A DNA stretch of 64,000 nt from a virus (IMGVR_UViG_3300037761_000327:9660-73659), one strand, 5' to 3'. Shown: positions 5,242-55,822, numbered from the stretch's first letter. Notes: a model not told the origin generated them from the sequence alone. Numbers and translations: made by a program.

Positions 5242-7728
5242 ATGGCAAGAAATAAAACGTACTTAAAAGTATCTAATCACAGGGTTGCACCGGACCCGTT
5301 TGCTCCAACTGAAATAAAGAATAGTGACGAGTACGGACTACAGTTCGCGAAATTAATCGAACACGAATGGTTCTATATCTCGGCAGGAAACACTGCCAAC
5401 CAGTTTTACGACAAGCGTCTTAAAATGGATGAGCAGAGAAAGTATGCCCGTGGAGAACATAGTACCGGACTTGTAAAGAAACTTATTACAGACGGCACCG
5501 ACGGAGATTCGTACACTAATTATGATTGGAGGCCTATTCAAATACTTCCAAAATTCATAAAGTTGGTGGTCAGCCAAATGCTGGAAAGGCTATACGAAAT
5601 AGACGCACAGGCAGTTGATGGTATCTCCCAAGGACTAAGGGACGAGTATAAGGACATCCTACAGAAGAATATGTATGCAAAGGATATGCTTAATGATGCC
5701 AAGAACCTATTTGGTATAGATTTAGTGCCCTCCGGCCTAGGCGAAATTCCTGATAGTGATGCAGAAATAGACCTGCACATGAAGCTAAAGTACAAACCTG
5801 CTATCGAGATAGCCATAGAGCAGGCCCTAAAATATACCTTAGAGCTAAACGAATACGACGAGACACAGAAAAGACTTATAAAGGATTTAGTAGAGATAGG
5901 CGTTGCTGCCCTCCACCACAGAACTGACCCTACAAAAGGAATCATAGCGGAGTACAGGGACCCAGCCGATATGTGTTGGGCCTATCCCACCAAGTCTAAT
6001 TTTGACAACGTAAACTATTACGGCGTAGTTAGGAGACTTACAATTAGCGAAGTGCAAAGGCTTTCGGGTAAGAAATTCACGCCGGAGGAATTGGAGAAGT
6101 ATAAGAACGTATCCAACGAGTGGCAAGGGTATAACCGTATATCGAACGAGTTTTGGTACAGGGGGGAAGACTTGCCCAGCACTATGGTAGATGTCTTGGA
6201 TTTCACTTTTAAGACGACCAAGACCACGAAGTTCAAAAAGAAATACAAACCAAACGGAGGGTTTTCCATTACAGAAAAGCCGTCCGATTATATTAAGCCC
6301 GAACACATACTTGCCAAAGAACAGGAACAGGGTTTCAAAGAGTACGATATCCTAGAGGATGTACAAGAAGTGTGGTACGAAGGCTCTATGATACTTGGTA
6401 GCGACATGCTATACAACTACAGGGAATGCTCAAATATGATTAGGCCGGAAGGTTTTATCAATAACAAAGTATCTTCCAATTATATAGTATATGCCCCAGA
6501 ATTGTACCAAGGAAGGATTCAATCCTTAGTGGACAGGGTAATTCAATACGTGGACCAGTTACAGCAGATACAGATAAAGATACAACAGTTCGTAGCCAAG
6601 GCCAAGCCAAACGGCATCTGGATTGATGTGGATGGATTGCAAGAATTGGACCTAGGGGACGGCAATTCTTTTGACGCATTGGACCTTATTAGGTATTATG
6701 ACCAGACCGGTAACTTACTTGGAACCTCCCGACTATCCGACGGAGGGTACAGCAATGGCGCCCTCCCCATAAAAGAATTGAACAACGGGGCAATGGCGGG
6801 GTTGGAGCAACTTATGAATGCCCACAACTTCCATTTCCAAATGTTCAGGGACTCCATAGGGATAGGACAAGGGGCCGACGGTACTTTACCTGACCCAAGG
6901 ACCTCCAACGGGGCCCTACAGTCACAGGAGATAAAATCCAACGTGGCCACAAGATATATTTTGGATGCCCAGTTAAAGATGACCCAGTACCTAGCTAATG
7001 GGCTATCCCTTAGGCTTAAGGACATATTCAAGTATTCTAATTTGAAAAATGCCTATATTAACTCTATAGGAAGGGTCAATGTTGATGTATTGGATTCTAT
7101 CCAAGACCTTCACCTACACGATTTTGGTATAACCATTAAACTTAAGCCAGACGCACAGGACAGGGCCCTACTGGAACATAATATTCAGGCGGAGATTGCT
7201 GCCGGAAACCTTGGTACCGAGGATGGTATAGATATAAGAAAGATAGGCAATATTTCTGTGGCAAACGAAATGCTCAAAGTCCGTAAGGAGAAAAGGATTA
7301 AGGAGGCCCACGCTAGGGAGATAGAAAAGATAGAGGCTAACGGTCAGGCTAGTCAACAGGCTGCCCAAGCGGCAGCGGCCTACAAGAAGGAGGAGATAAT
7401 GTTCGAAACAGAGGCCAAGAAAGAGCTTCTTATATTGGAGGCAGAACTTAAAAGAGCCTCTCTTAACGAAGAGTTAGAAGCCAAGAGACTACTGATGGCC
7501 GACGAGTATTACTACCAAACAGGCGTACAGACCAAGATAGCCGAAGTAAAAAGAAGCGACGACGCCTATAAAGAGGACAGGAAGGACAAGCGTACAGCCA
7601 TTCAAGCCACTCAGCAAAGTAAGATAAAGGCGGAGCAAAGTAAAGAGGGGGGCGGTAAGCCCATAGACTTCGAATCGGCACATACAAGCATGACCGGAGA
7701 GCTCGGTCTGGACGATTTTAGGACGTAA
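5242..7728 (+). CDS. Portal protein
   Basis: 828 aa between terminase and scaffold/capsid; NYDWRPIQILPKF segment; long C-terminal coiled coil as in podovirus portals. Confidence 0.85.
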   Translation: MARNKTYLKVSNHRVAPDPFAPTEIKNSDEYGLQFAKLIEHEWFYISAGNTANQFYDKRLKMDEQRKYARGEHSTGLVKKLITDGTDGDSYTNYDWRPIQILPKFIKLVVSQMLERLYEIDAQAVDGISQGLRDEYKDILQKNMYAKDMLNDAKNLFGIDLVPSGLGEIPDSDAEIDLHMKLKYKPAIEIAIEQALKYTLELNEYDETQKRLIKDLVEIGVAALHHRTDPTKGIIAEYRDPADMCWAYPTKSNFDNVNYYGVVRRLTISEVQRLSGKKFTPEELEKYKNVSNEWQGYNRISNEFWYRGEDLPSTMVDVLDFTFKTTKTTKFKKKYKPNGGFSITEKPSDYIKPEHILAKEQEQGFKEYDILEDVQEVWYEGSMILGSDMLYNYRECSNMIRPEGFINNKVSSNYIVYAPELYQGRIQSLVDRVIQYVDQLQQIQIKIQQFVAKAKPNGIWIDVDGLQELDLGDGNSFDALDLIRYYDQTGNLLGTSRLSDGGYSNGALPIKELNNGAMAGLEQLMNAHNFHFQMFRDSIGIGQGADGTLPDPRTSNGALQSQEIKSNVATRYILDAQLKMTQYLANGLSLRLKDIFKYSNLKNAYINSIGRVNVDVLDSIQDLHLHDFGITIKLKPDAQDRALLEHNIQAEIAAGNLGTEDGIDIRKIGNISVANEMLKVRKEKRIKEAHAREIEKIEANGQASQQAAQAAAAYKKEEIMFETEAKKELLILEAELKRASLNEELEAKRLLMADEYYYQTGVQTKIAEVKRSDDAYKEDRKDKRTAIQATQQSKIKAEQSKEGGGKPIDFESAHTSMTGELGLDDFRT

Positions 7729-30251: not shown

Positions 30252-31814
30252 CTACCTTTCTACGGTTACTACCGCCTCTGTGGTAAGGAACGTACCCGCC
30301 ACTGACGCAGCGTTCTCAAGGGCACAACGTGTAACCTTTTTAGGGTCGATAATTCCCTCTTCAATCATATTCACAAATTCTCCGGTCTTAACGTTGATAC
30401 CATATCCTTCGGAATTGTATGAGCAATACTCACGCCCGGCGTTATCACATATCTGCCTTGCAGGGGCAGAGCAGGATTCCAACACTATATGGTAACCTGC
30501 CTCAAAGGCGGATAGCTCTACAGGAGATACTGACATCAACGAACTTGCAGCATTGTCAAGAGCGACCCCTCCACCGGCAACGATGCCTTCTTCAAGTGCC
30601 GACCTAGTGGCATTTATACTGTCCTCTACCCTGTCCTGCTTCTCCTTCAACTCACTATCAGACTTTGCCCCCACGTAAAGTGTGGCCACCCCGCCCGTGA
30701 TTCTGGATAGTCTTTCCTGTAGTTCAAGTTTATCGAACTGATTTTTAGTGGCCGAAATTTTCTCCTTCAACTCGGATACCAGTCCTATAAGGTTATCGGC
30801 ATTCCCTACCAACAGTGAATCTTTTTCGGATATCACGCACTTGCTGAGCCTTCCCAGAACTTCCGGACGTAGCTTGACGCCCTCCACATCGGACACGACC
30901 GTTGCTCCCGTAAGTACGGAGATATCGTTCATAAGGTCCTTCTCTATCTTGAGTATCTGGGGAGTCTTTACAAGACATATCTTTCCGGCTATGGCCCCCT
31001 TCTTGACATTCTCCAAAATAGTGGAGAGTACGAACGGGTCAACATCGTCGGCGATAATCAGCAAAGTGTTCTTGGGCTGAGAGAATACCGCACTGAAAAG
31101 GCTTACTATTGCATCCCCCTTCTCCAGCTTCCCTTTGTGCAGGAGTACGAAAGGCTGGTCCAGTTCGCATATGTCCTTCACCTTGTTAGTTATGAAATTC
31201 TGGTGGTAGAAGCCCCTATCCAACTGTACCCCGTCGCGAAGTTCGACATAGGTATCACTGGTATCGGACACAGCGGTCACCACTGTCCCGTGCTTGCCTA
31301 TCTTATTGAAGGCCTTGGCTATAATCTTTCCAAGCTCCGTGTCCCCGTTTGCCGAAATAGTGGCCACGCTCTCCAAATCTGACTTGGACACTTTCTTGGA
31401 CACCTTGTCCAAGTAGGCGACAATATCCTTGGTAGCTTGGTCTATGCCCCTTTTTAGCTCTACGGAAGAGATATTGTCGGAAGAGGACAAGAGGTTTAGA
31501 CCTTTCTCAAAAATGCTCTGGGCAAGTACCGTTGCGGTAGTGGTTCCGTCGCCGGCCTGACTGTTGGTCCTACGTGCGGCCTCCTTCACAACCTCTGCCC
31601 CAATCCTTTCGTACTCGTCCCTAGGACTGATGGATTTGGCAATCGATACACCGTCCTTAGAGATGATGTAGCTGTAACTGGTCCCCACTTGTACCGGAAA
31701 TATGACGTTACGTCCTTCTGCCCCAAGGGATACCTTTACGGCATTTGCAACTGCATCGACTCCCCTTTTTAAGGCCTCCCGTGCTTCGTTATTAAATTTA
31801 ATTGTAGTGTTCAT
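30252..31814 (-). CDS. groEL: Chaperonin GroEL
   Basis: SKDGVSIA, AGDGTTTATVLA, GIVAGGG, GIIDPKKVTRCALENAAS; no GGM tail. Confidence 0.97.
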   Translation of the reverse strand: MNTTIKFNNEAREALKRGVDAVANAVKVSLGAEGRNVIFPVQVGTSYSYIISKDGVSIAKSISPRDEYERIGAEVVKEAARRTNSQAGDGTTTATVLAQSIFEKGLNLLSSSDNISSVELKRGIDQATKDIVAYLDKVSKKVSKSDLESVATISANGDTELGKIIAKAFNKIGKHGTVVTAVSDTSDTYVELRDGVQLDRGFYHQNFITNKVKDICELDQPFVLLHKGKLEKGDAIVSLFSAVFSQPKNTLLIIADDVDPFVLSTILENVKKGAIAGKICLVKTPQILKIEKDLMNDISVLTGATVVSDVEGVKLRPEVLGRLSKCVISEKDSLLVGNADNLIGLVSELKEKISATKNQFDKLELQERLSRITGGVATLYVGAKSDSELKEKQDRVEDSINATRSALEEGIVAGGGVALDNAASSLMSVSPVELSAFEAGYHIVLESCSAPARQICDNAGREYCSYNSEGYGINVKTGEFVNMIEEGIIDPKKVTRCALENAASVAGTFLTTEAVVTVER

Positions 31815-47099: not shown

Positions 47100-48431
47100 T
47101 CAATCTTCGTTGTTGGTCACGGGAAGTTCCTCTACCCACTCACTGTCCTCGTCAAGGACCCATCCTGCCAAGTCGTAGGCTTCGTCCACATCGACAATCC
47201 TTACGTCCATGTCCAAATCCTCTACCCACATTACTTCGTCTTCGGGATAATAGTCGTTGTTGAAATCACAGTAACGGGTGTCCTCTTTGTGGTACCACAT
47301 ATTTTCGGAGTCTACGTAGGTTATTTCGTCGGACCCCTCGTACACCATGACGTACCTGTTCGTACAGACACAATGTTCGTATAGGTACCATTCTCCGTCT
47401 ATGGAGCACTGGGTAGCATTGTCCACGTGGGTATGTACATCCCTATAACCAAGGTACACAGCTTCGTCCCTGTCGATATAGCAATCATTTGCCTCATCGT
47501 ACACCCTATCCTCGTTGTCTTCACATTCCTGACTCTCCGGCTCGGTCTGGGCATAAATCTCGTAGTCTCCGTCGTCATATGCCATTATCGAACCATCATC
47601 CCAACAACAGAACGTATCCATGTAGGGTATTGGCTTAAAGTCGGTGTCAACGGATATCCTAGCTTTTATTTCACATACCTTATCGTCCGGACCAATCCAA
47701 GTAGGGAAACAGGGGTCTTGGCAAGATTTTCTGTACCAACCGTTCGTCCTTGCGAGCATCTTGAACGCCTCTGTGATATAATCGTTGGCGTATATCCTGT
47801 CCAAAAATTTCCTTCCCTCCTTGTCTGTCCAAAGGAGTGCCCTTCCCCTTATCAAATCCTCGTCCGGGTCCGGCGACCTCAGTATCACCATTTGGCAATT
47901 TTCGTTATTGGCATAGAACTCTGTGGCCCTTTGGCACGCCCCTTCGTGCCTCATACAGGAGGAGCCCAAGCTTCCAATATTGAACTCGTAGTCGTAATTT
48001 TCGCCAAGATAGTACTTGGTGATATCATCCCCGCTCACGATTGCGAACTCCCCCTCTACCGTGTATCTAGCTTTGAGGGAGTTTACTATTGCCTCCAGTT
48101 CGCTGGCCTTTATCAGTTTGGGCTCTACACCGTTCTCGACCAAGAGTTTTCTTAAGACCTTGCCATAGCTGCCCGACTGCCTGTTATCGCTTTTCCAAGT
48201 AGGTGGGAAAGTATGCGTATTGGCTATGCAATCCTTCCCTTTTGGCAAAAAAGTCATCTCGCCCTTGTTGTTCACGGTGACGTTCTTCATACCTTTTCCG
48301 GTAGCCTCTGTTTTGTAGATGTTGAAAAGCATGTCCACCAAGGTATTATTGTTGACGGAAAGTATTTTTTCCATCAGGCTACTGCTTATGTGCTGATTTT
48401 CTACCGGCACGTTAATGACCTCTATACTCAT
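47100..48431 (-). CDS. Hypothetical protein (SCMR / GRALLW / DRIY / PYMD motifs, Cys-acidic C-terminal repeats)
   Basis: Start MSIEV overlaps the peptidase stop (ATGA). Confidence 0.65.
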   Translation of the reverse strand: MSIEVINVPVENQHISSSLMEKILSVNNNTLVDMLFNIYKTEATGKGMKNVTVNNKGEMTFLPKGKDCIANTHTFPPTWKSDNRQSGSYGKVLRKLLVENGVEPKLIKASELEAIVNSLKARYTVEGEFAIVSGDDITKYYLGENYDYEFNIGSLGSSCMRHEGACQRATEFYANNENCQMVILRSPDPDEDLIRGRALLWTDKEGRKFLDRIYANDYITEAFKMLARTNGWYRKSCQDPCFPTWIGPDDKVCEIKARISVDTDFKPIPYMDTFCCWDDGSIMAYDDGDYEIYAQTEPESQECEDNEDRVYDEANDCYIDRDEAVYLGYRDVHTHVDNATQCSIDGEWYLYEHCVCTNRYVMVYEGSDEITYVDSENMWYHKEDTRYCDFNNDYYPEDEVMWVEDLDMDVRIVDVDEAYDLAGWVLDEDSEWVEELPVTNNED

Positions 48432-49666
48432 TTTATTTTTGATTTTGATTTTGATAGTGAATGTGAATCTGAATTTACGTCCTCCTTGTCCAACCAATTA
48501 TTGAAGTACTCTTCGTCGAGTTCGTCCTCTAAGTCCGGCCCCGCATGGCTATAGATATTGGTATACTCGTCGCAGGCAAAGCACCAGTCCGCATCCTGAG
48601 CACTGTCGAACATTATTTCGTCCGTACCGCACTGGCTGCAACAGGTCTCGAGGTCATAATGCTCGAAAGCGTCCTCATCGGTAAAGTCTTCGGAGGAGGG
48701 GTAGTCCAGTTCCTGCTCTATCTTAACGCCATGCCTCTCGGACAGGTCTCTCCAAGACGACGCGCCCTGTCCGTACTTATAGCCTTCCCACCAATCCTGC
48801 TTGCTCTCCTCGCTCCAATCGGTGTAGTGCCTTTTTCCGCCGGCCCCCTTAGAACCTTTCCCCTTATGGGACTTGGCCTTGTACTTTCTCCGATCTACGT
48901 ACAGGCTGTTCTTCCACACCTTTCCGCCCAAAGAGGTTATTATAGCGAAGACCATGTCCCTAGTACTGAACACTTCGTTGAGGATTATGACCTCATCGTC
49001 GCAGTGTGGACGGTAATACCCACATGACATATTGGCCACGCAAACATCCAGACCGTTACTTACAAGCTGGTGCACGTCCGTAAGTCCGCCCTGATTGGTC
49101 TCCTTTTTTCCGTAGGTTTCCAATATGGTGGATATCGCCGAGGAGAAAGGCCTATCAAAAAGCTTATCCCCCAATATCGTGTTCACGAAATCCTTGTACC
49201 CCTGCCTGTCGCACTGTAGTACAAACTCTACGTTTTTGAACCAATTCATGTCGGCCTCGATACTTCCGAGGCATCCGTGCTCCTCGTCCCTGAAAAATGC
49301 AACTTTGATTACACCAACTTCCCTTAGCATCTCAAGTGCCACGTATATCCCTACCTTATCGTCTCCACCGACTCCCACTTGGAGCCCTTCGGACATGTCC
49401 ATTGCGAACATTATGTCGTCCTTTTCGAACACGGTAAAGTTATCGTGTATCTTGTGCACCGTATCCGTGTGCGCGATTACGCATGGGTACGTGTCGGCCT
49501 TTCCTTTCGTAATGTAGGTGTTACCGACCTCGTAGTGGAAGTCGAAGTTGTCCTCGTTGTCTTTAGACAGCTCCAAATACCGTTCATAGATGAAGTCGTC
49601 CATATCCTTGGTCGTATACGTTGCCGTCTGCACGGACATGACGTCCATCAGTCTTTCTTTGCTCAT
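48428..49666 (-). CDS. M20/M28-family zinc peptidase with C-terminal Zn ribbon
   Basis: AHTDTVH, GGDDKVG, DEEHGCLGS, QCDR, GYYRPH; CSQC...CFAC. Confidence 0.85.
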   Translation of the reverse strand: MSKERLMDVMSVQTATYTTKDMDDFIYERYLELSKDNEDNFDFHYEVGNTYITKGKADTYPCVIAHTDTVHKIHDNFTVFEKDDIMFAMDMSEGLQVGVGGDDKVGIYVALEMLREVGVIKVAFFRDEEHGCLGSIEADMNWFKNVEFVLQCDRQGYKDFVNTILGDKLFDRPFSSAISTILETYGKKETNQGGLTDVHQLVSNGLDVCVANMSCGYYRPHCDDEVIILNEVFSTRDMVFAIITSLGGKVWKNSLYVDRRKYKAKSHKGKGSKGAGGKRHYTDWSEESKQDWWEGYKYGQGASSWRDLSERHGVKIEQELDYPSSEDFTDEDAFEHYDLETCCSQCGTDEIMFDSAQDADWCFACDEYTNIYSHAGPDLEDELDEEYFNNWLDKEDVNSDSHSLSKSKSKIK

Positions 49667-49715
49667 TATGATAATAATTGTTTAATGATTGTTTTGGCAA
49701 TATTGCCGGTTTCAG

Positions 49716-49789
49716 TGGTAGGGGACGGATTCGAACCGCCATATCGGGCGCATCGGGCCCCGCGCTCTGACCAATTGAGCTACCCTACT
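49716..49789 (-). tRNA. tRNA-like gene with aberrant anticodon arm (possibly Ile-GAT pseudogene)
   Basis: Good D arm GCTC/GAGC and T arm GGCGG-TTCGAAT-CCGTC; loop CCGATGC lacks U33 and purine-rich 3' side. Confidence 0.55.
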
Positions 49790-49885
49790 TTTAAGATATT
49801 AATATAGCTCCACTACCAATTAAAATATGTATATAAAAACATGCCCAACATTCCTATCCATAAGAATGCATATGATACTACTTCC

Positions 49886-50245
49886 CTAGTCTTCTTTTTC
49901 ATAGTAAATATCTTCGTTATCGATTCCAAACTCCAGTTCTCTGTCCGTAGGTTCGTAGTCGTCCCAATCCAAGTTTTCCCACACTTCCTCTGTAGTCAAC
50001 ATCCCGTTCTTCCTCTCTTCCGCAAGGGATTTCCTAAGTCTTTTATCCCTCTCTGAGCAAGCTTCCACCCACTCTTCTTCCCATTCCTCTAGATTAAGGT
50101 TCTTGTCATCGTAGGATATGTGAAAGGTTTCGACGGGCCTTGATTGTCTCTTGTGAAATTCTAATCTGAAAAGCGCCTCTTCTAGAGTAAACCCTCCCTC
50201 GACGGTCTCTGACAACTTGCCTACGGTCTTTATTATGTTTCTCAT
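49886..50245 (-). CDS. Hypothetical acidic protein
   Basis: ATGA-coupled ORF. Confidence 0.6.
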   Translation of the reverse strand: MRNIIKTVGKLSETVEGGFTLEEALFRLEFHKRQSRPVETFHISYDDKNLNLEEWEEEWVEACSERDKRLRKSLAEERKNGMLTTEEVWENLDWDDYEPTDRELEFGIDNEDIYYEKED

Positions 50246-50592
50246 ATTCCCGATGTTTTGTTCTGTAGTTCCATTATAAGGTCTTCCAGTTGGAGTATCC
50301 TGCCCAACCTAACCCCGTCCTTGTGGTCGCTCTCCTCACTGGAAGGCATCGTGTCCTCTTGGTACCTCAACTTCTTTTGCAGCATTTCTATAATCCCTTC
50401 CTTATCCATGTCTTCCTCTTTTTCGTTCAAAAAATGTGTTACTATTTGATTGGTACAGCTCCAACTCGGACTCTTACCGGAGAAGGACAACGTCGCTTCT
50501 ATCCTATGTACATTGCCCATCGTGGTCTCAGTCTTGACCACGTACTTTCCTATGGGCGGGGGGTTGTCCCTGTCGTATTCGGTCCAGTTCAT
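50242..50592 (-). CDS. Hypothetical protein
   Basis: MNW...PP.GKYVV start; first gene after the repeat array. Confidence 0.6.
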   Translation of the reverse strand: MNWTEYDRDNPPPIGKYVVKTETTMGNVHRIEATLSFSGKSPSWSCTNQIVTHFLNEKEEDMDKEGIIEMLQKKLRYQEDTMPSSEESDHKDGVRLGRILQLEDLIMELQNKTSGI

Positions 50593-50612
50593 TTGATAGT
50601 GTTTTGTTTAGG

Positions 50613-50672
50613 CTATATAATCAACAGCACGTAAGGATAGTTGCCGTTGCCGTAGCCGTTGGGTAATTCCAT
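50613..50672 (-). CDS. Gly-X repeat peptide 7 (19 aa, MELPNGYGNGNYPYVLLII; not in ORF track)
   Basis: Same start, end and spacer as the other six units; only 2 XG pairs. Confidence 0.7.
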   Translation of the reverse strand: MELPNGYGNGNYPYVLLII

Positions 50673-50687
50673 AGTGTTTTGTTTAGG

Positions 50688-50933
50688 TTATATAATCAAC
50701 AGCACGTAAGGATAATTGCCGTAGCCGTAGCCGTCGCCGTAGCCGTAGCCGTAGCCGTCGCCGTTGCCGTTGCCGTAGCCGTAGCCGTTGCCGTTGCCGT
50801 AGCCGTAGCCGTAGCCGTTGCCGTAGCCGTAGCCGTAGCCGTCGCCGTAGCCGTTGCCGTAGCCGTAGCCGTCGCCGTCGCCGTTGCCGTCGCCGTAGCC
50901 GTAGCCGTCGCCGTCGCCGTTGGGTAATTCCAT
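50688..50933 (-). CDS. Gly-X repeat peptide 6 (81 aa)
   Basis: MELPNG(XG)33NYPYVLLII. Confidence 0.8.
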   Translation of the reverse strand: MELPNGDGDGYGYGDGNGDGDGYGYGNGYGDGYGYGYGNGYGYGYGNGNGYGYGNGNGDGYGYGYGDGYGYGNYPYVLLII

Positions 50934-50948
50934 AGTGTTTTGTTTAGG

Positions 50949-51236
50949 TTATATAATCAACAGCACGTAAGGATAATTGCCGTAGCCGTAGCCGTCGCCG
51001 TCGCCGTAGCCGTTGCCGTTGCCGTAGCCGTTGCCGTTGCCGTTGCCGTAGCCGTAGCCGTAGCCGTCTCCGTAGCCGTCGCCGTAGCCGTAGCCGTAGC
51101 CGTAGCCGTCGCCGTAGCCGTTGCCGTTGCCGTAGCCGTAGCCGTTGCCGTAGCCGTAGCCGTAGCCGTTGCCGTAGCCGTAGCCGTAGCCGTTGCCGTA
51201 GCCGTAGCCGTAGCCGTCGCCGTTGGGTAATTCCAT
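50949..51236 (-). CDS. Gly-X repeat peptide 5 (95 aa)
   Basis: MELPNG(XG)40NYPYVLLII. Confidence 0.8.
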   Translation of the reverse strand: MELPNGDGYGYGYGNGYGYGYGNGYGYGYGNGYGYGNGNGYGDGYGYGYGYGDGYGDGYGYGYGNGNGNGYGNGNGYGDGDGYGYGNYPYVLLII

Positions 51237-51251
51237 AGTGTTTTGTTTAGG

Positions 51252-51467
51252 TTATATAATCAACAGCACGTAAGGATAGTTGCCGTAGCCGTCGCCGTCG
51301 CCGTCGCCGTCGCCGTAGCCGTTGCCGTTGCCGTTGCCGTAGCCGTAGCCGTCGCCGTAGCCGTTGCCGTTGCCGTCGCCGTCGCCGTCGCCGTTGCCGT
51401 TGCCGTAGCCGTTGCCGTAGCCGTAGCCGTAGCCGTAGCCGTAGCCGTCGCCGTTGGGTAATTCCAT
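51252..51467 (-). CDS. Gly-X repeat peptide 4 (71 aa)
   Basis: MELPNG(XG)28NYPYVLLII. Confidence 0.8.
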   Translation of the reverse strand: MELPNGDGYGYGYGYGYGNGYGNGNGDGDGDGNGNGYGDGYGYGNGNGNGYGDGDGDGDGYGNYPYVLLII

Positions 51468-51482
51468 AGTGTTTTGTTTAGG

Positions 51483-51746
51483 TTATATAATCAACAGCAC
51501 GTAAGGATAGTTGCCGTTGCCGTCGCCGTAGCCGTTGCCGTAGCCGTTGCCGTAGCCGTCGCCGTAGCCGTTGCCGTAGCCGTTGCCGTAGCCGTAGCCG
51601 TTGCCGTAGCCGTAGCCGTCGCCGTAGCCGTCGCCGTTGCCGTAGCCGTTGCCGTAGCCGTTGCCGTTGCCGTTGCCGTAGCCGTAGCCGTAGCCGTTGC
51701 CGTAGCCGTCGCCGTTGCCGTAGCCGTAGCCGTTGGGTAATTCCAT
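51483..51746 (-). CDS. Gly-X repeat peptide 3 (87 aa)
   Basis: MELPNG(XG)36NYPYVLLII. Confidence 0.8.
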   Translation of the reverse strand: MELPNGYGYGNGDGYGNGYGYGYGNGNGNGYGNGYGNGDGYGDGYGYGNGYGYGNGYGNGYGDGYGNGYGNGYGDGNGNYPYVLLII

Positions 51747-51761
51747 AGTGTTTTGTTTAGG

Positions 51762-51971
51762 CTATATAATCAACAGCACGTAAGGATAATTGCCGTAGCC
51801 GTCGCCGTCGCCGTAGCCGTTGCCGTTGCCGTAGCCGTAGCCGTAGCCGTAGCCGTCGCCGTAGCCGTCGCCGTAGCCGTAGCCGTCGCCGTCGCCGTAG
51901 CCGTTGCCGTAGCCGTAGCCGTCGCCGTTGCCGTAGCCGTAGCCGTTGCCGTAGCCGTTGGGTAATTCCAT
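51762..51971 (-). CDS. Gly-X repeat peptide 2 (69 aa)
   Basis: MELPNG(XG)27NYPYVLLII, TAG stop. Confidence 0.8.
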   Translation of the reverse strand: MELPNGYGNGYGYGNGDGYGYGNGYGDGDGYGYGDGYGDGYGYGYGYGNGNGYGDGDGYGNYPYVLLII

Positions 51972-51986
51972 AGTGTTTTGTTTAGG

Positions 51987-52232
51987 TTATATAATCAACA
52001 GCACGTAAGGATAGTTGCCGTAGCCGTCGCCGTCGCCGTCGCCGTTGCCGTTGCCGTCGCCGTCGCCGTAGCCGTAGCCGTAGCCGTCGCCGTAGCCGTA
52101 GCCGCCGCCGTCGCCGTCGCCGTAGCCGTAGCCGTAGCCGTAGCCGTCGCCGTAGCCGTCGCCGTAGCCGTAGCCGTCGCCGTCGCCGTAGCCGTAGCCG
52201 TCGCCGTTGCCGTTGCCGTTGGGTAATTCCAT
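51987..52232 (-). CDS. Gly-X repeat peptide 1 (81 aa)
   Basis: MELPNG(XG)33NYPYVLLII; starts 15 nt after the VWA gene stop. Confidence 0.8.
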   Translation of the reverse strand: MELPNGNGNGDGYGYGDGDGYGYGDGYGDGYGYGYGYGDGDGGGYGYGDGYGYGYGDGDGNGNGDGDGDGYGNYPYVLLII

Positions 52233-52247
52233 AGTGTTTTGTTTAGG

Positions 52248-53306
52248 TTATATAATCAACTCCTTCACACCGAGGACTTTTGCCACTTGTGTCCTTACCC
52301 CTATCCCCATTACCAATATATTAGAAATATTTTTTGGCAGCGTTTCGATGTCACAACTATCGTCGTCGGTTATTATGACCGATAGTTGTGACATATCTTT
52401 TATTATGTTATCAATAACCACTTTATAATTCGTACCACCACCGCCTTTAATCGGGTCTTTTTGCAACAGAACATCGTTGAAGTACAAAACATCCTTATTT
52501 ATACCCCCTCTATACTTCAATACTACCTTATTTAGTGTATCATTGGCAGACCTTGTCTTGGTTTCGTCAAAACTCCCCGACCTGTCTACGTAGATGGTCA
52601 AGGTCGGTGCTTTCCTTTTAGACGAAACTCCTTTCCTCAAAAGCTCGTCATTATGGCCCCTTCTATTGGGTCTTTTATAAGATTTTTCCCTACGTACCTT
52701 AAACCTGCCTAAATACCTGTCTATTTCACTTGCTAGACTAGGCTTTATATCCACTTTTGATACATCCTCTTGTAGTGAGGTCAGCCTTGAAGCATCGATT
52801 ATTTCATTAATTTCCGAAACAGCCTTTTCAATTAATGAATCAACACTGGTTAGTTTATCTAGAAGCTCTTCGAGTTCTTCGGGCCCAAGTGGTCGGATTT
52901 CCGTATTACCGTCTACATCAGTAGAATTGAGTTGATTTTCATCGGATTTTAGGAGCTCAGAATAAAAATCTTCCGCATATACACAATTAGGGTATTTATC
53001 GCAATCCTTTGTGATAATGCCCCCTTTCAAAGGCGACCTTGGTTCGGCTATATTATTGTTATCCTTATCGGAGTAAATATATAATGCTATTTCAAGGTCG
53101 CAGGCAATGTTCCATTTTTTATGGTCCAGCCCTAATATCCTTTGACCCCTTTGATAGTGTTGCAACCAGATGTGGGATTTTTCGTGGCTACGCAAGGTCT
53201 GTAGGTACTTCCCTCTTACAGACGTGCTGGTATATATTTTAATATAGTCAGTGTATCCTATGCTTGGAGAAGTCCCACTAAACCTTACCTCCTCTATGCT
53301 ATCCAT
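52248..53306 (-). CDS. HExxH metallopeptidase-like plus VWA domain protein (DUF2201-like)
   Basis: HEKSH..LQH..R, WNIACDLEI, SYKRPNRR, MIDAS DRSGS, GGGGTNY, IITD. Confidence 0.85.
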   Translation of the reverse strand: MDSIEEVRFSGTSPSIGYTDYIKIYTSTSVRGKYLQTLRSHEKSHIWLQHYQRGQRILGLDHKKWNIACDLEIALYIYSDKDNNNIAEPRSPLKGGIITKDCDKYPNCVYAEDFYSELLKSDENQLNSTDVDGNTEIRPLGPEELEELLDKLTSVDSLIEKAVSEINEIIDASRLTSLQEDVSKVDIKPSLASEIDRYLGRFKVRREKSYKRPNRRGHNDELLRKGVSSKRKAPTLTIYVDRSGSFDETKTRSANDTLNKVVLKYRGGINKDVLYFNDVLLQKDPIKGGGGTNYKVVIDNIIKDMSQLSVIITDDDSCDIETLPKNISNILVMGIGVRTQVAKVLGVKELII

Positions 53307-53580
53307 TTAAAGTGGTGCCTTTGAACTCATAAAGGTTCTTCGAAGGAAGGATTGCATACACGGCTGATAGTGGAAATGTTAGGGTTTCGTCCTTGTCGAA
53401 CTGGTCAAGGTGGACAGTCGCCCCGTCTCTATTAGAAGCAACCCCGGGCAACCCTTTACCACCACCGAACTTTCTGAACATTGATGCATTTGTAAGGGAA
53501 ACGAAACCTTCGGGGGCATTTATCTCCTCTCCAAAGAAATAAAACCCACCTGCAATAGTAAAAATCTTAAAATTTTTCAT
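53299..53580 (-). CDS. Small beta-rich hypothetical protein
   Basis: GFYFFG...LTNASMFRKFGGGKGLPGVA; overlaps the VWA gene start. Confidence 0.7.
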   Translation of the reverse strand: MKNFKIFTIAGGFYFFGEEINAPEGFVSLTNASMFRKFGGGKGLPGVASNRDGATVHLDQFDKDETLTFPLSAVYAILPSKNLYEFKGTTLNG

Positions 53581-53638
53581 TTTTGTTTAATTTAAAAGTT
53601 AATATTTGTTTTTGTTATATTTAGTTTAGGTCAGACAA

Positions 53639-54418
53639 TCAATCGAACCTCAACGGTTTTTGTAGGGCCCTTCCGCCTACGCTTCTAGATATTGCCTGTA
53701 TATCAGCTCCACCCTCCCCTTTGTTAGCGTTCGACTTAAACAGGCTTATCATCCCGCTTGCTGCATTGGTCGTCAACAACCCTTTTATTATCTCCTTTTT
53801 TTCATCGGTCTTCAAAGCCTTGTCCAGTGAAGCGGAGATTGCCATTTCCAAACTCCGTGGACTTGTTGTTCGAAGTTCAAAATCCTCACCAATACGTTCC
53901 AACAAGGGGATTTCCCTATTTTTTATCCTGTCAACAAAGCTTTGGATAAAATCATTGTCGAGGTGTCCGTACTTGTTTGTGATGAAACTTATAAAACCAA
54001 CAACGTCAGGAACAGCGTTTATTATCGTAAACCTGTTCATCATAGGTATCGAAACTCCGTCTCCGCCACCCCACTCAGGAGGATTGGCACAAGCAATTAC
54101 ATCTACGCTTTCGGGTATCCCGAACAGTTCCTGATTGGTTACCAGTGTTAACAAAGTGTCGGAAACTTCCCTTCTTGCTTTGTCCATTTCGTCGAGTAAA
54201 AGGCACACTTTTTGGTTTTTCAGGGAAGCTTGTTGCAACCTTGCCACAAACGGCGGGATTGCCCTCTTTTCGAAGTCGCCTTCCCTATAGGGGATTCCGG
54301 ATATATCCTCCTCGGTCATACTGGATAATAGTAATACTTCAACGTAGTCGTATTGCTGTTTTATCTTCTGGGTCTTGCCAATTCCAGTGGCGCCCACGTA
54401 CAGTTTTGGTATTTTCAT
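53639..54418 (-). CDS. MoxR/dynein-related AAA+ ATPase
   Basis: Walker A GATGIGKT, D..GIP, Walker B LLLDE, sensor ANP, arginine finger NRF, SPRS. Confidence 0.9.
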   Translation of the reverse strand: MKIPKLYVGATGIGKTQKIKQQYDYVEVLLLSSMTEEDISGIPYREGDFEKRAIPPFVARLQQASLKNQKVCLLLDEMDKARREVSDTLLTLVTNQELFGIPESVDVIACANPPEWGGGDGVSIPMMNRFTIINAVPDVVGFISFITNKYGHLDNDFIQSFVDRIKNREIPLLERIGEDFELRTTSPRSLEMAISASLDKALKTDEKKEIIKGLLTTNAASGMISLFKSNANKGEGGADIQAISRSVGGRALQKPLRFD

Positions 54419-54439
54419 GATGGTATTGATATTTACGAT

Positions 54440-54475
54440 TAATGTTTATAAGTAATGTTTATAAGTAATGTTTAT
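54440..54475. repeat. 13-bp tandem repeat (TAATGTTTATAAG, about 2.8 copies)
   Basis: Intergenic, immediately upstream of the AAA gene. Confidence 0.75.
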
Positions 54476-54483
54476 TTATATCC

Positions 54484-54888
54484 TTACAGACCCAAATCCC
54501 CCATCATTATCCCGCCCCTCTCAAGGTCCATCCTCATCTCTTCGATAAAGGATTGGTGCTCTACCTGTGCGAGCCATTCTTCGTAGGAGGTGCCCCCTCT
54601 TTGAATATCTACGCTATATTCCCCATCTGCACCAGTCCCCTGCATTCCAGCCTGAAATGGTAGAGACGGATAGCCCCTTTTTGCGTACAGCCCTCCAAAA
54701 TCTGGATTTTCTGTATGCTCCTCTCCTCTATCGATAGCATCCTCCTCCGCCTGCGCTTTGGTCCTGTTACTGTTCTTTGTCCTTGTTCCATGTTTCGAGT
54801 TTTGATAGTGAATGTCTTCCCTTCTTGCCTTTGCCGCGAGCAATGCTGCGAAAGCGAATATTGCTGCTGCCATTAAGTAATTGTTCAT
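54484..54888 (-). CDS. Hypothetical protein with N-terminal hydrophobic segment
   Basis: MNNYLMAAAIFAFAALLAA. Confidence 0.6.
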   Translation of the reverse strand: MNNYLMAAAIFAFAALLAAKARREDIHYQNSKHGTRTKNSNRTKAQAEEDAIDRGEEHTENPDFGGLYAKRGYPSLPFQAGMQGTGADGEYSVDIQRGGTSYEEWLAQVEHQSFIEEMRMDLERGGIMMGDLGL

Positions 54889-54985
54889 ACCTTAGTTTTT
54901 AAATAGTTTCATTACCCTTCTTACCCTTGTACCGCTCTCGCAATCGGATATGTCCATACAGTCGAAGGCCAAGTCAAAATCCCGT

Positions 54986-55321
54986 TTAGGTATCTGCTCC
55001 GCCAACCTGTTCAGTTCCGTCATCCTGTTGTACCATTCCTGTGTTGTCATCCTTGATTATTTTAAATTGTCCTTTGTGGAGTGTCTGGGGGGTGGGGTAC
55101 CAAAACGGGAGACCCTTGCACAAAACTTTGCACCGCTCCCCACTTATTCTATACACGTCCACTCCACCGTAGCCGTTGCTTGTCCCCCTTATCTCCCCTA
55201 TCGAGCCGTCCTTTAAGCAGTGCCCTACGTGATGCCCCCTTCGCCTACTTTGGTCGTACGAAGGGCTGTTCGGATTCAGTTCGCCGATTATAATTACCTT
55301 TGTTCCTATTGGTATACTCAT
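54986..55321 (-). CDS. Hypothetical protein
   Basis: Related in style to the N-terminal half of the neighbouring ORF (HC, GYGG/GGYG, F/W.IIKD). Confidence 0.5.
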   Translation of the reverse strand: MSIPIGTKVIIIGELNPNSPSYDQSRRRGHHVGHCLKDGSIGEIRGTSNGYGGVDVYRISGERCKVLCKGLPFWYPTPQTLHKGQFKIIKDDNTGMVQQDDGTEQVGGADT

Positions 55322-55330
55322 GATTTCCCT

Positions 55331-55822
55331 CTATTTATGGTTATCCCTACAATTGTCCTCTATGTCATCAATTATACCCTTTGCACCTTCGGGGCCTGCG
55401 AACCAGTAAGTAATTTTTTCTTTGTTGGGCCCGTGGTAGGTGATGGTATTGTCGGTATTTATATCGTACTTACAACAACCGTTGTTCGATATTACCGAAA
55501 CCTCCACCCTGTCACGCTTTCCCGAAGCGCAGGAAGAGGAAAGAGCGAATATAAGGATTATGATAGTGAATACATTGAACAGGGACTTAATGGATTTCCA
55601 GAGTCCTTTTAAGAAACTGTGACTTTCGTCCTTTTCGTCCTTTATAATTTCCCATTCTGAGCCGTACCCTCCTATGTGTGCGCAGTGGTTTGGTATGCAG
55701 TAGTGCCCTTTCACATAAAAACCGGCAGATATTCCCGGCTTTGTTTCGTATACTTCGTCCCGGTCTACCCAAGTAGTTGACCTCAGGCCATCCTTACCTA
55801 TACTTTTTACCTTTACTTTCAT
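55331..55822 (-). CDS. Hypothetical membrane protein
   Basis: Internal hydrophobic segment ending LSSSC (lipobox-like). Confidence 0.55.
   Translation of the reverse strand: MKVKVKSIGKDGLRSTTWVDRDEVYETKPGISAGFYVKGHYCIPNHCAHIGGYGSEWEIIKDEKDESHSFLKGLWKSIKSLFNVFTIIILIFALSSSCASGKRDRVEVSVISNNGCCKYDINTDNTITYHGPNKEKITYWFAGPEGAKGIIDDIEDNCRDNHK

Follow-up and report, generated by a model that had tools for sequence, protein, structure and literature searches.

MoxR-type AAA+ ATPases act together with VWA proteins, as in the pairs RavA-ViaA, CbbQ-CbbO, NorQ-NorD and BchI-BchD, and midasin carries a MIDAS domain of its own. The expected logic of these pairs is that of an ATP-driven remodeller with a VWA adaptor gripping the client. 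In RiPP precursor cassettes, multi-copy precursor genes lie beside processing proteases. Gly/Tyr-rich self-associating proteins include the high-glycine-tyrosine keratin-associated proteins (KRTAPs), the [G/S]Y[G/S] domains of FUS, FG-nucleoporins and spore-coat proteins. The phage locus analyzed here shares features with each of these systems. Its four parts (mini-proteins, ATPase, Sm-like protein and VWA protein) form a previously uncharacterised module, and no account of it was found in the libraries or literature searched.

Layout of the locus

The window, by which we mean the whole stretch of 64,000 nucleotides of viral DNA analyzed, comes from a 73.7-kb phage genome that is 100% complete according to CheckV. 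All coordinates are counted from its first letter. Its minus strand, which is the strand of every neighboring gene from ~26 to 56 kb, carries the genes for an AAA_5 ATPase (259 aa, 53639..54418), a 93-aa protein (53299..53580), a 352-aa HExxH/VWA protein (52248..53306) and seven in-frame mini-ORFs of the formula MELPNG(XG)nNYPYVLLII. These are mini-genes 1 (51987..52232, 81 aa, n = 33), 2 (51762..51971, 69 aa, n = 27), 3 (51483..51746, 87 aa, n = 36), 4 (51252..51467, 71 aa, n = 28), 5 (50949..51236, 95 aa, n = 40), 6 (50688..50933, 81 aa, n = 33) and 7 (50613..50672, 19 aa, n = 2), the last of which has collapsed but still has the motifs at its two ends. An identical 15-nt spacer, CCTAAACAAAACACT, lies upstream of each mini-gene, with a final copy at 50598..50612 on the same strand, and all copies share one frame. 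The stops are TAA or TAG (TAG in mini-gene 2), and the Asn codon ahead of YPY is AAC or AAT. The original prediction had described this operon from the ATPase to the seventh mini-gene, and every feature it named, from the spacers and the common frame to the stop and Asn codons, was found on the minus strand, with repeat numbers that matched exactly on recount.

The module is surrounded by replication and early genes. In Pfam and PHROGs scans of the neighboring ORFs at 47100-55822 of the window, the sole named product besides the ATPase and the VWA protein was an M28 peptidase.

The three larger proteins of the module

The ATPase scores 23.6 bits against Pfam AAA_5 (PF07728), above the gathering cut-off of 22, and matches phrog_1297 (E 3e-15), and its closest solved sequence is the AAA domain of midasin (E 6.5e-4). 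It has a Walker A motif, GATGIGKT, and a Walker B motif, LLLDEMD. Residues D76, E77 and D79 are invariant in the alignment with its relatives, and identity to the ATPases of two related loci, L130 and L045, is 35-38%. The VWA/MIDAS gene adjoins the ATPase gene in the window, and the same adjacency is seen in related loci. Judged by sequence, the protein is an ATPase of the AAA_5/MoxR-type AAA+ class on all three counts (Pfam, Walker motifs and VWA neighbor).

The 352-aa protein is predicted to be a fusion of an HExxH metallopeptidase (DUF2201_N-like, with the motif HEKSH) and a VWA domain with a DxSxS MIDAS motif. It scores just below the Pfam cut-offs for PF09967 (23.6 bits, cut-off 26.4) and PF13203 (21.2 bits, cut-off 23.2) and matches phrog_1314 (E 4e-23). 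In 11 homologues of 29-34% identity, H41, E42, H45, E72, D241, S243, S245, T313 and D314 are invariant, a set that comprises the HExxH motif, a downstream Glu and the DxSxS...T...D residues of the MIDAS. The peptidase half gave a poor structural model (pLDDT <50).

The 93-aa protein is the best-conserved member of the module, with 58% identity to its L130 counterpart. It had no match to Pfam at E 0.01 or better; its relatives fall into 70 database clusters, every one unnamed or hypothetical and without Pfam, and number 29 among 1.84 billion representatives. It models as an Sm/LSm-like bent five-stranded beta-barrel (AF2, pLDDT 95.5). The best Foldseek matches of the model are Sm-like (3by7, E 1.3e-3, TM 0.59), and VIA gave Z 8.3 to 6ppv_A, 7.8 to 3by7_A and then 7.4, values near 8 being only moderate according to the tool's own note. 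Down to rank 40, nearly all VIA rows are Sm, LSm or Hfq entries or contain an LSm-domain chain. The Atlas neighbors are viral DUF6948/Sm_like clusters, which we take as a lead only. Neither the Sm-like fold nor the top conservation of this ORF had been part of the original prediction.

Sequence make-up of the array

The seven cores comprise 199 hexamers, 197 of which read (T/A/G)ACGGC (TAC 101, AAC 48, GAC 48), the two exceptions being one GGCGGC and one TACGGA; the latter holds the sole GGA codon, in mini-gene 5. CAC is absent from the X codons, whose first base is the sole variable position. The order of Tyr, Asn and Asp is near random (mean longest shared block 6.67 vs 6.16 in shuffles; chi-square 9.8, 4 df), and the constant parts of the mini-genes (75 nt) are near-identical between copies. 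Wobble positions are near-frozen, with 1 of 199 Gly codons and 0 of 197 NAC codons changed, and GGC, only 18% of Gly codons phage-wide, is yet near-universal in the arrays. We attribute the frozen wobble to the descent of all units from one hexamer; a constraint at the DNA, RNA or codon level could also be its source. Shine-Dalgarno sites were found for only 2 of 32 phage genes, and the start context of the spacer, TAAACAAAA, is common to the mini-genes and other genes of this phage.

A mini-protein family linked to the module genes

Homologues of the VWA or the 93-aa protein in viral contigs, metagenomes and two bacterial genomes nearly always have one to four adjoining mini-genes. Their products start with M-x-[LY]-P-x-G and end in a YPY tail, with a core that is about half Gly and otherwise mostly Tyr/Phe, Asn and Asp, and with 3-6 residues after YPY. 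We defined the family by an N-cap M-x(1-3)-[LYIF]-[PS]-x-G, Gly and aromatic contents of no less than 25% and 10%, respectively, and a C-cap YP[YHSF] plus 2-12 residues, adjoining Sm-like, ATPase or VWA genes; all seven copies of the window belong to it.

Among loci found via the VWA protein, a mini-gene begins just past the VWA stop in nine of ten viral loci and in both bacterial-genome loci (Luteibacter sp. Sphag1AF and a Paraburkholderia MAG). The 35 metagenome loci found via the Sm-like protein yielded 33 motif-matching mini-genes in 19 loci; diverged G/Y-rich ORFs adjoin the Sm-like gene in three more, and 12 of the 13 remaining loci are contigs cut within the module. These were picked by N-cap and composition, and the YP[YHSF] tail, which was no part of the search, is present in 28/28 complete metagenome mini-genes. 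When 118 loci were chosen solely by hexamer pattern, two had the YPY-tailed type, and the module was present in both.

Identity between the window phage and the proteobacterial set is 30-38% for the VWA protein and the ATPase and 58% for the Sm-like protein. One family member consists of GF/GY repeats with N/D spacers (L155), another has a non-repetitive core (L164/L165), and the residues past YPY vary by lineage (LLII, NLI, LVTR). The trio of larger genes also occurs without mini-genes in L153/L139, where none lies within 2 kb downstream, and an AAA / 92-aa / metallopeptidase trio without them is found in the N4-like Pseudomonas phage inbricus, so mini-protein clients are evidently not required for the enzymes to work. 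The original prediction stood or fell with co-occurrence of the array with AAA and HExxH-VWA genes elsewhere, and this co-occurrence is clearly there and tight. By genome comparison, the mini-protein family is genetically locked to the ATPase, Sm-like and HExxH/VWA genes.

Proposed role of the mini-proteins

In our judgment the best overall explanation, and a moderately probable one, is that the translated mini-proteins are bulk, self-associating clients of the ATPase, Sm-like protein and VWA-peptidase. Because there are many copies with identical start contexts and any length from 19 to ~105 aa is tolerated, their role would be a stoichiometric, bulk one. Their composition suggests that they might form a self-associating Gly/aromatic material (matrix, fibril or condensate) in the infected cell. 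The conserved caps could be handles for docking, trimming or remodelling by the VWA-peptidase, the Sm-like protein and the ATPase, to which genetic linkage ties them, and this remodelling would parallel that of MoxR/VWA pairs acting on their clients.

We also consider, at low probability, that the module is a membraneless-compartment kit. In this picture the Gly/Tyr(Phe)-Asn/Asp mini-proteins, much as FUS-type or FG-type domains do, would make up a low-complexity phase that coheres; RNA or the Pro/Tyr caps would be recruited by the Sm-like ring; and assembly, disassembly and trimming would fall to the AAA_5 ATPase together with the VWA-peptidase as its adaptor. If true, this would be a viral counterpart, in a bacterial cell, of eukaryotic RNP granules, with dosage set by expansion and contraction of the tandem mini-gene array.

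The original prediction had instead likened the array to a precursor-peptide library, with amyloid formation, a decoy role or metal binding as candidate functions. In such a RiPP-like system the HExxH peptidase would cut the caps and free a bioactive or modified (Gly-X)n peptide, and short ORFs in several copies, constant at both ends and variable in between, that lie beside a metallopeptidase with an intact HExxH would suit it, as would the conservation of the caps across lineages. We find it improbable, however, as Pfam and PHROGs revealed no radical-SAM, YcaO, lanthipeptide or other maturase family in the neighboring ORFs, and no export or immunity gene was seen. The constant N-terminus of just 6 residues is no leader and the C-cap has 9 aa, while the cores vary in length and composition, with length free (2 to 40 units) and a compositionally uniform rather than position-specific make-up. 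The position among replication and early genes also speaks against it.

Gly-rich tracts stall AAA+ unfoldases, and the mini-proteins could be host-directed decoys or inhibitors whose Gly-rich tracts, with a degron-like tail, block the AAA+ proteases of the host or titrate out a defence sensor, with the phage enzymes merely maturing or protecting them. High gene dosage and length tolerance would suit a stoichiometric inhibitor, as would the accessory or early location, beside recombination genes in prophages. But no common degron is evident, because the residues after YPY differ between lineages, and the obligate linkage to phage-encoded partners favors an internal client relationship, so that we regard the decoy role as rather unlikely. 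The module proteins had no match among the PADLOC models, a library of defence and not counter-defence proteins.

Reading frame and change of the arrays

The start codon, caps and stop are conserved in ~20 lineages that use different codons at G+C contents from 32 to 59%. Gly is encoded by GGC in the window phage and the proteobacterial lineages, by GGA (63/63) in L154, by GGG (33/41) in L170 and by a mixture in L155. The cap Pro is CCC, CCA, CCT or CCG, and YPY is TAT-CCT-TAC, TAC-CCT-TAT or TAC-CCC-TAT. Five of the six frames are open over the repeats, and the peptides of the other frames differ by lineage (AV, AI/AS, SV, PI) or, in the non-repetitive L164, are interrupted by stops. Since the caps stay the same despite differing codon usage and conservation is limited to this frame, translation on the strand and in the frame originally predicted is supported. 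The comparison establishes the family and its reading frame, and by this evidence the mini-ORFs are bona fide genes, presumably translated, that belong to a family conserved among phages.

The ORFs might still be a by-product of an element that acts as DNA or RNA, a non-coding hexanucleotide minisatellite, or the array could be an assembly artefact. Variation is indeed confined to one hexamer base, with frozen wobble and open alternative frames, and according to a published study GGC outnumbers the other Gly codons in low-complexity regions of prokaryotes, perhaps owing to slippage bias (PMC6821194). The public contigs from two runs with the locus (X1, X2) stop precisely where the array is bounded (50639 or 50597, and 52231) and cover its inside only with 49-61-nt pieces; the copy number of seven and the order of the copies should be taken as provisional. 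The X1 pieces, however, are exact matches with a depth similar to that of the flanks, the array of a related phage was identically assembled in five samples, and an array is present in an isolate genome too. In addition, two samples contain the array of the window, in one case from a strain with ~28 differences in ~2,380 bases compared. RNA runs shared only generic hexamer words with the locus, covering no flank. RNA folding of the array equals that of shuffles (z = -0.01), which, with the conserved caps and the non-repetitive member, makes this reading very improbable and, at the family level, largely refutes it.

In five assemblies of a single related phage, the Sm-like gene (276/276 nt), the ATPase gene (729/729 nt) and the first mini-gene are all identical. 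The second mini-gene encodes 30 aa in four of them (L150, L179, L180, L181) and 68 aa in the fifth (L176), this 114-nt difference being the sole length change, and the collapsed 30-aa copy is comparable to mini-gene 7 of the window. In L136 and L137 the VWA genes agree at 1053/1053 nt, and over the initial 114 nt of their arrays a single hexamer differs. The arrays are thus built of hexamer units, which are gained, lost and reshuffled by replication slippage or unequal recombination while selection acts on composition. The term 'hypervariable' used in the original prediction holds between copies and lineages but not within the related phage.

Targeted hypermutation, DGR-like or other, that keeps rewriting the first base of the X codons would account for a near-random Y/N/D order beside near-identical constant parts, but it is hardly credible. 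The 73.7-kb genome has no RVT_1 match, and together with the unchanged first mini-gene and the single 114-nt change this argues for slippage or recombination; moreover, the arrays are otherwise identical across the five assemblies, and the second A of the codon is invariant, unlike in adenine mutagenesis. The hallmarks of a diversity-generating retroelement are missing: the genome has no RVT_1 match, none of the copies is invariant as a template would be, and in NAC the variation is limited to the first base.

Coding on the plus strand, with (Val-Ala)n proteins open from a TTG start, T/A/G changes read as synonymous GTA/GTT/GTC (197/197 variable sites) and TAA/TAG as synonymous TTA/CTA, deserves almost no weight, since the Ala wobble is invariant and GTG absent, AAC/AAT and GGA are non-synonymous there, all neighbors lie on the minus strand, and the frame comparison across relatives, whose equivalent frame reads AI/AS, SV or PI or has stops, appears already to refute it.

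Comparison with known systems

Like diversity-generating retroelements, the arrays are repeated coding segments that differ at set codon positions with AAC/TAC/GAC-type codons. Unlike them, they have no reverse transcriptase or template repeat, only one of two adenines varies, and they are stable across samples. RiPP cassettes share the tandem short ORFs with constant ends, variable middle and protease neighbor, but the locus differs in having no maturase, no leader of usual length and no export or immunity genes, and in its low-complexity core of variable length.

The mini-proteins, known here from their genes, resemble Gly/Tyr-rich self-associating proteins in composition (about half Gly, about a quarter aromatic, polar spacers) and small size, with no claim of homology, and KRTAP genes also form tandem multi-copy arrays. 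The one hint of this kind in the searches was a KRTAP-carrying cluster at 0.85, below the level trusted by the tool. The strict G-X alternation, found in many lineages, and the conserved Pro/Tyr caps set the phage mini-proteins apart.

The trio of the N4-like phage inbricus (MG018928.1; phrog_1297, phrog_1314) has the same gene order as the window, and its VWA protein is 22-24% identical over 80-88% of the length. It differs in having no Gly-rich mini-genes and in its 92-aa ORF, which has no detectable kinship to the Sm-like protein (BLASTP E 0.12). The label carried by phrog_1314 is 'HNH endonuclease'.

As in MoxR/VWA pairs, an AAA_5 gene adjoins that of a VWA protein with a complete MIDAS motif. 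Unlike in those pairs, no metal-cofactor enzyme or other known client lies near the module of the window, the VWA domain shares its polypeptide with an HExxH peptidase, the set has an Sm-like protein as its obligate third partner, and the presumed clients are tandem low-complexity mini-proteins encoded within the operon itself.

A minus-strand operon ending in seven tandem mini-genes

The source record is 73,659 bp long and 100% complete by CheckV. The window, which covers its positions 9660-73659, has a G+C content of 44.6%, and between ~26 and 56 kb all of its called genes lie on the minus strand. In this region, a 259-aa ATPase (54418-53639, minus strand; phrog_1297), scoring 23.6 bits against the Pfam AAA_5 cut-off of 22, is followed by a 93-aa ORF (53580-53299, minus strand) that appears Sm/LSm-like from its model, and by a 352-aa protein (53306-52248, minus strand) with an HEKSH motif and a VWA-like C-terminal half. 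The latter matches phrog_1314 (E = 4e-23), and its scores for DUF2201_N and DUF2201 both fall slightly below the Pfam cut-offs. Together with this trio, the module comprises seven mini-ORFs of the form MELPNG(XG)nNYPYVLLII on the minus strand, in one common frame and separated by identical 15-nt spacers. By script, n = 33, 27, 36, 28, 40, 33 and 2, and the original description of the locus proved accurate in all particulars. Of the 199 hexamers, 197 are TACGGC (101), AACGGC (48) or GACGGC (48), the exceptions being one GGCGGC and one TACGGA; variation is otherwise confined to the first hexamer base, and CAC is absent from all 199.

No terminator-like site was found on the minus strand within the operon, and a promoter scan, in a host without sigma-70-type signals, gave nothing informative. 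RNA folding of one mini-gene with its spacers gave z = -0.01.

The phage also encodes its own DNA polymerase and primase/helicase, a full-length GroEL-type chaperonin (30252-31814, minus strand; phrog_5725, E = 5e-146) and, two genes downstream of the array, an M28-family peptidase (48428-49666, minus strand; PF04389; phrog_4191, E = 1e-58) whose C-terminal extension is rich in Lys, Gly, Asp and Glu. Among the 13 tRNA genes between 49715 and 62149 are those for Tyr(GTA), Asn(GTT) and Gly(TCC), with none for Asp. Of the three residues that occupy X in the mini-proteins, the set serves Tyr and Asn; its Gly tRNA reads GGA/GGG, and the arrays use GGC instead.

The array in sequencing runs and assemblies

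The locus was present in two sediment-metagenome runs, X1 and X2 (0.89 and 0.69 of the sampled words). Contigs from both runs end exactly at the array borders, and the interior is represented only by pieces of 49-61 nt. In X1 these pieces match the window exactly at a depth similar to that of the flanks; X2 holds a different strain, with ~28 of ~2,380 bases differing from the window. Because both runs hold the locus and the X1 interior pieces match exactly at flank-like depth, the array is real in two samples, while its seven-copy number and order rest on one assembly.

Five separate samples of a related phage yielded the same kind of array in identical form, apart from one length change described below. 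Others occur in viral contigs of 35-46 kb, where three, four or two-plus-three copies are present, and, within a 520-kb contig, in the genome record of Luteibacter sp. Sphag1AF. That record, probably from an isolate since its accession is RefSeq-type, carries the module in a prophage (NZ_JACHYH010000002.1, ~249.6-260.6 kb).

Two RNA runs (X19 and X21) have only short hexamer-repeat pieces in common with the locus, with 1-3 mismatches and nil flank coverage; these pieces derive from repeats of other organisms and have no bearing on expression here. More broadly, runs X3-X24, many of them from wastewater, sludge or soil and including RNA libraries, held ~0.17 of the sampled words, all hexamer repeats, with high depth reached in X19 and X21. 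Repeats of this type may be plentiful in other organisms, where they are possibly transcribed, although DNA carry-over is also possible. The small shares in wastewater and sludge runs are no evidence of the phage's habitat.

The mini-genes are read in the Gly-X frame

Read on the plus strand, the repeats would encode (Val-Ala)n with all T/A/G changes synonymous, so that coding of (Val-Ala)n products by that strand was at first a serious rival, and comparison across loci settled the matter against it. The opposite frame reads AV, AI/AS, SV or PI according to lineage, and in L164, a locus whose core is not a simple repeat, it is interrupted by stops. A conserved product exists in the Gly-X frame only, with an M-x-[LY]-P-x-G start, a Gly/aromatic/Asn/Asp core and a tail of YPY plus 3-6 residues before the stop, kept across loci. 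The codons meanwhile change: Pro is CCC, CCA, CCT or CCG among loci. For Gly, GGC is used by the window phage and by the proteobacterial set; L154 uses GGA throughout (63 of 63), L170 mostly GGG (33 of 41) and L155 a mixture. X is encoded by NAC in most lineages, with NAT in L135. Since only the Gly-X product persists while the codons change, Gly-X is the coding frame.

Consecutive mini-genes of the proteobacterial loci overlap by ATGA. In the window phage, Shine-Dalgarno sites precede just 2 of 32 genes, and the mini-genes share with its other genes an A-rich start context, TAAACAAAA. The comparative evidence, with cap motifs conserved in the Gly-X frame despite codon change, indicates that the mini-genes are translated, on the strand for which this had been proposed. 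The idea that NAC codons relate to queuosine-read tRNAs was rejected, as relatives use NAT (L135, L170) and other residues (T, S, F).

The mini-genes accompany the ATPase, Sm-like and VWA genes

A search of viral contigs with the VWA protein found 10 loci at 30-35% identity, and in nine of them a mini-gene begins directly past the VWA stop. The exception is L139; a more distant relative (L001, 26%) is also without a mini-gene. Mini-genes are also present in both bacterial-genome matches, one in Luteibacter sp. Sphag1AF and the other in a Paraburkholderia MAG. With the 93-aa protein as bait, 35 loci were recovered from metagenome contigs and filtered by N-cap and composition, the tail being no criterion. 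Thirty-three ORFs at 19 of these loci passed, and all 28 complete ones carry a YP[YHSF] tail. At three further loci (L143, L145, L149) the bait adjoins diverged ORFs, 109-139 aa long and G/Y-rich, and 12 of the other 13 are contigs ending inside the module. Only L153, on the same contig as L139, has a complete trio without anything resembling a mini-gene. The mini-genes, in 1-7 copies, stand after the VWA gene, between any two trio genes or before them. Conversely, at least 118 viral loci were chosen by the hexamer pattern alone; among those listed, two (L045 and L130) are of the YPY-tailed type, and both have the module.

Many loci are one phage seen in several samples, and the distinct lineages number about 20, with G+C contents of 32 to 59%. 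The co-occurrence with AAA/VWA genes anticipated by the original prediction is thus borne out from the VWA side and from homologues of the 93-aa protein alike. The mini-genes are very probably a real gene family tied to the module, and the family's linkage to the AAA_5 ATPase, the Sm-like protein and the HExxH-VWA protein is obligate. Among 50,697 phage records, neither blastn with the locus nor tblastn with the L130 VWA protein gave a match, and an exact search of viral contigs with the 26-nt tail/spacer gave 0 matches.

Some loci are organized differently. L133, a 46-kb phage contig, has its mini-genes in two clusters (1832-2364 and 5927-6815): a pair that follows a small membrane-protein-like ORF upstream of the module, and a set of three on the downstream side of the VWA gene. 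Its Sm-like and ATPase genes are separated by an inserted HNH-like gene. In L175, ~5 tandem units of ~92 nt (1812-2317), each opening as a ~40-aa ORF starting VSFFCEY, lie directly upstream of the Sm-like gene.

Viral contigs commonly contain (G-[YNDS])n tracts built from (N-A/G-C)GGC hexamers, with at least 118 loci (L013-L130) and several unrelated contexts. These include small M..FRPVG(XG)nTVS..RRR proteins, a C-terminal tract behind an N-terminal '..VVDVLD.GAC.DGV..' domain, an N-terminal tract ahead of a ~150-aa C-terminal domain ('HGETLREAMEALRDKLFEDMP...WHHRLTGSC') and DUF7666 fusions (L074). Ten tract proteins searched against Pfam and PHROG matched no family of known function, DUF7666 (L074) aside.

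Properties of the partner proteins

The 93-aa protein is the best-conserved member: its identity with the L130 protein is 58%, where the VWA protein and the ATPase reach 33-38%. Database searches with it gave 70 clusters, every one unnamed or 'hypothetical' and lacking a Pfam domain, and only 29 matches among 1.84 billion representatives at E <= 0.001. Its model (pLDDT 95.5) matched the Sm/LSm-like barrel 3by7 in Foldseek (E = 1.3e-3, TM 0.59); VIA-align gave Z scores of 8.3 to 6ppv_A and 7.8 to 3by7_A, moderate by the tool's note, and nearly all rows to rank 40 were Sm, LSm, Hfq or entries holding an LSm-domain chain. The model thus matches an Sm/LSm-like barrel, with moderate Z scores and uniform matches. 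As a lead only, the ESM Atlas places the protein beside viral DUF6948/Sm_like clusters. Some lineages have a tandem pair of Sm-like genes (L164, 2464-3055), and two proteins of 190-195 aa (P0096 and P0097), which match the Sm-like profile in two stretches, may be fused double copies.

In the VWA protein, no substitution among 11 homologues affects the HExxH motif, a Glu downstream of it or the MIDAS residues, so both halves look active. Its model (mean pLDDT 55.7, with residues 1-39 and 72-140 under 50) was too poor for a fold search, and a profile search of solved structures returned a single chance-level match (E = 0.24). The nearest solved relative of the ATPase by sequence is the midasin AAA domain (E = 6.5e-4). 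The module proteins matched no PADLOC or NCBIfam model. Complex prediction using the VWA-peptidase and Sm-like alignments, with a 69-aa mini-protein as partner, gave 0.00 ('no answer'), which is neutral on binding.

The VWA protein ends much as the mini-proteins do (ELII/LLII in the window, VVTR/MVTR in L133 and L142). Functional mimicry was rejected, because both ends are encoded by shared junction DNA of the repeat unit, overlapping stop/start included; the likeness is absent from six other lineages.

Arrays vary by gain, loss and reshuffling of units

The order of Y, N and D in the window is near random (mean longest shared block 6.67, versus 6.16 ± 0.32 after shuffling; neighbor-pair chi-square 9.8, 4 df), and the largest block common to two copies is 12 units, in copies 1 and 2. 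The constant parts (75 nt) have just two differing sites per unit. In the related phage, the five assemblies have identical flanking genes (276/276 and 729/729 nt), and their sole difference is a 114-nt length change giving a second mini-gene of 30 aa in four and 68 aa in one. Between L136 and L137, whose VWA genes are identical (1053/1053 nt), one hexamer differs in the first 114 nt of the array.

We conclude that units are gained, lost and reshuffled via slippage or unequal recombination, and that the same process keeps the caps uniform; the 19-aa seventh copy of the window is a collapsed unit, like the shortened second mini-gene of the related phage. Against templated hypermutation as the source of variation stand three findings: no reverse transcriptase was found in the genome, the second adenine of the codon is invariant, and the 105-aa first mini-gene is identical in all five assemblies. 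We also conclude that selection acts on core composition (aromatic, Asn, Asp), because aliphatic and basic residues are absent though one mutation away.

GGC makes up ~100% of Gly codons in the arrays versus 18% in the remaining genome. This frozen wobble is most simply accounted for if all units descend from one hexamer, which explains it only partly. According to PMC6821194, GGC is the prevalent Gly codon of prokaryotic low-complexity regions, in which aromatic residues and Asn are strongly under-represented, making the mini-protein composition unusual.

Possible roles of the module

Mini-gene dosage is high and variable, and the family is indifferent to core length while conserving the Pro/Tyr caps. 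The favored reading takes the mini-proteins to be bulk, self-associating material on which the ATPase, Sm-like protein and VWA-peptidase would dock via the caps, trimming or remodeling it. We consider this client/material reading as a whole somewhat probable; it builds on background from both MoxR/VWA systems and Gly/aromatic low-complexity proteins, and any specific product of the module is much less likely. A host-directed decoy role for the mini-proteins is possible, and the bolder reading of the module as a phage condensate kit is improbable. The precursor-peptide library originally proposed, of a RiPP-like kind, fails the defining tests because Pfam and PHROGs showed no maturase family in the neighboring ORFs and there is neither a leader nor a fixed-length core.

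Comparison with known systems

The four-gene module has no name in Pfam, PHROGs, NCBIfam or PADLOC, and no description of it was found in full-text literature searches. A dipeptide-repeat glycofibril (10.1101/2025.09.30.679562), whose repeats are tentatively assigned as Ala/Ser, is unrelated to the mini-proteins.

If the client/material reading holds, MoxR/VWA systems would gain a built-in, easily traced client, and self-assembly studies in bacteria would gain a natural graded-length series of Gly/aromatic repeats. To our knowledge, the clients of MoxR/VWA systems are mostly unknown. The wider occurrence of (G-[YNDS])n tracts, in at least 118 viral contigs and fused to several unrelated domains of unknown function, may matter equally.

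The N4-like Pseudomonas phage inbricus (MG018928.1; L178, 64591-67063) has a similar AAA / 92-aa / metallopeptidase gene order but differs in that mini-genes are absent and its small protein has no detectable relation to the 93-aa protein. The VWA-peptidase homologue is labeled 'HNH endonuclease' in several RefSeq N4-like phage records and in phrog_1314 despite its HExxH/VWA features; the label is probably a propagated misannotation. The ATPase/VWA pair of the module belongs to the MoxR/VWA kind, from which the module differs in that its VWA is fused to a peptidase, that an Sm-like protein is a third member and, as the chief novelty, that tandem low-complexity proteins are encoded in the operon.
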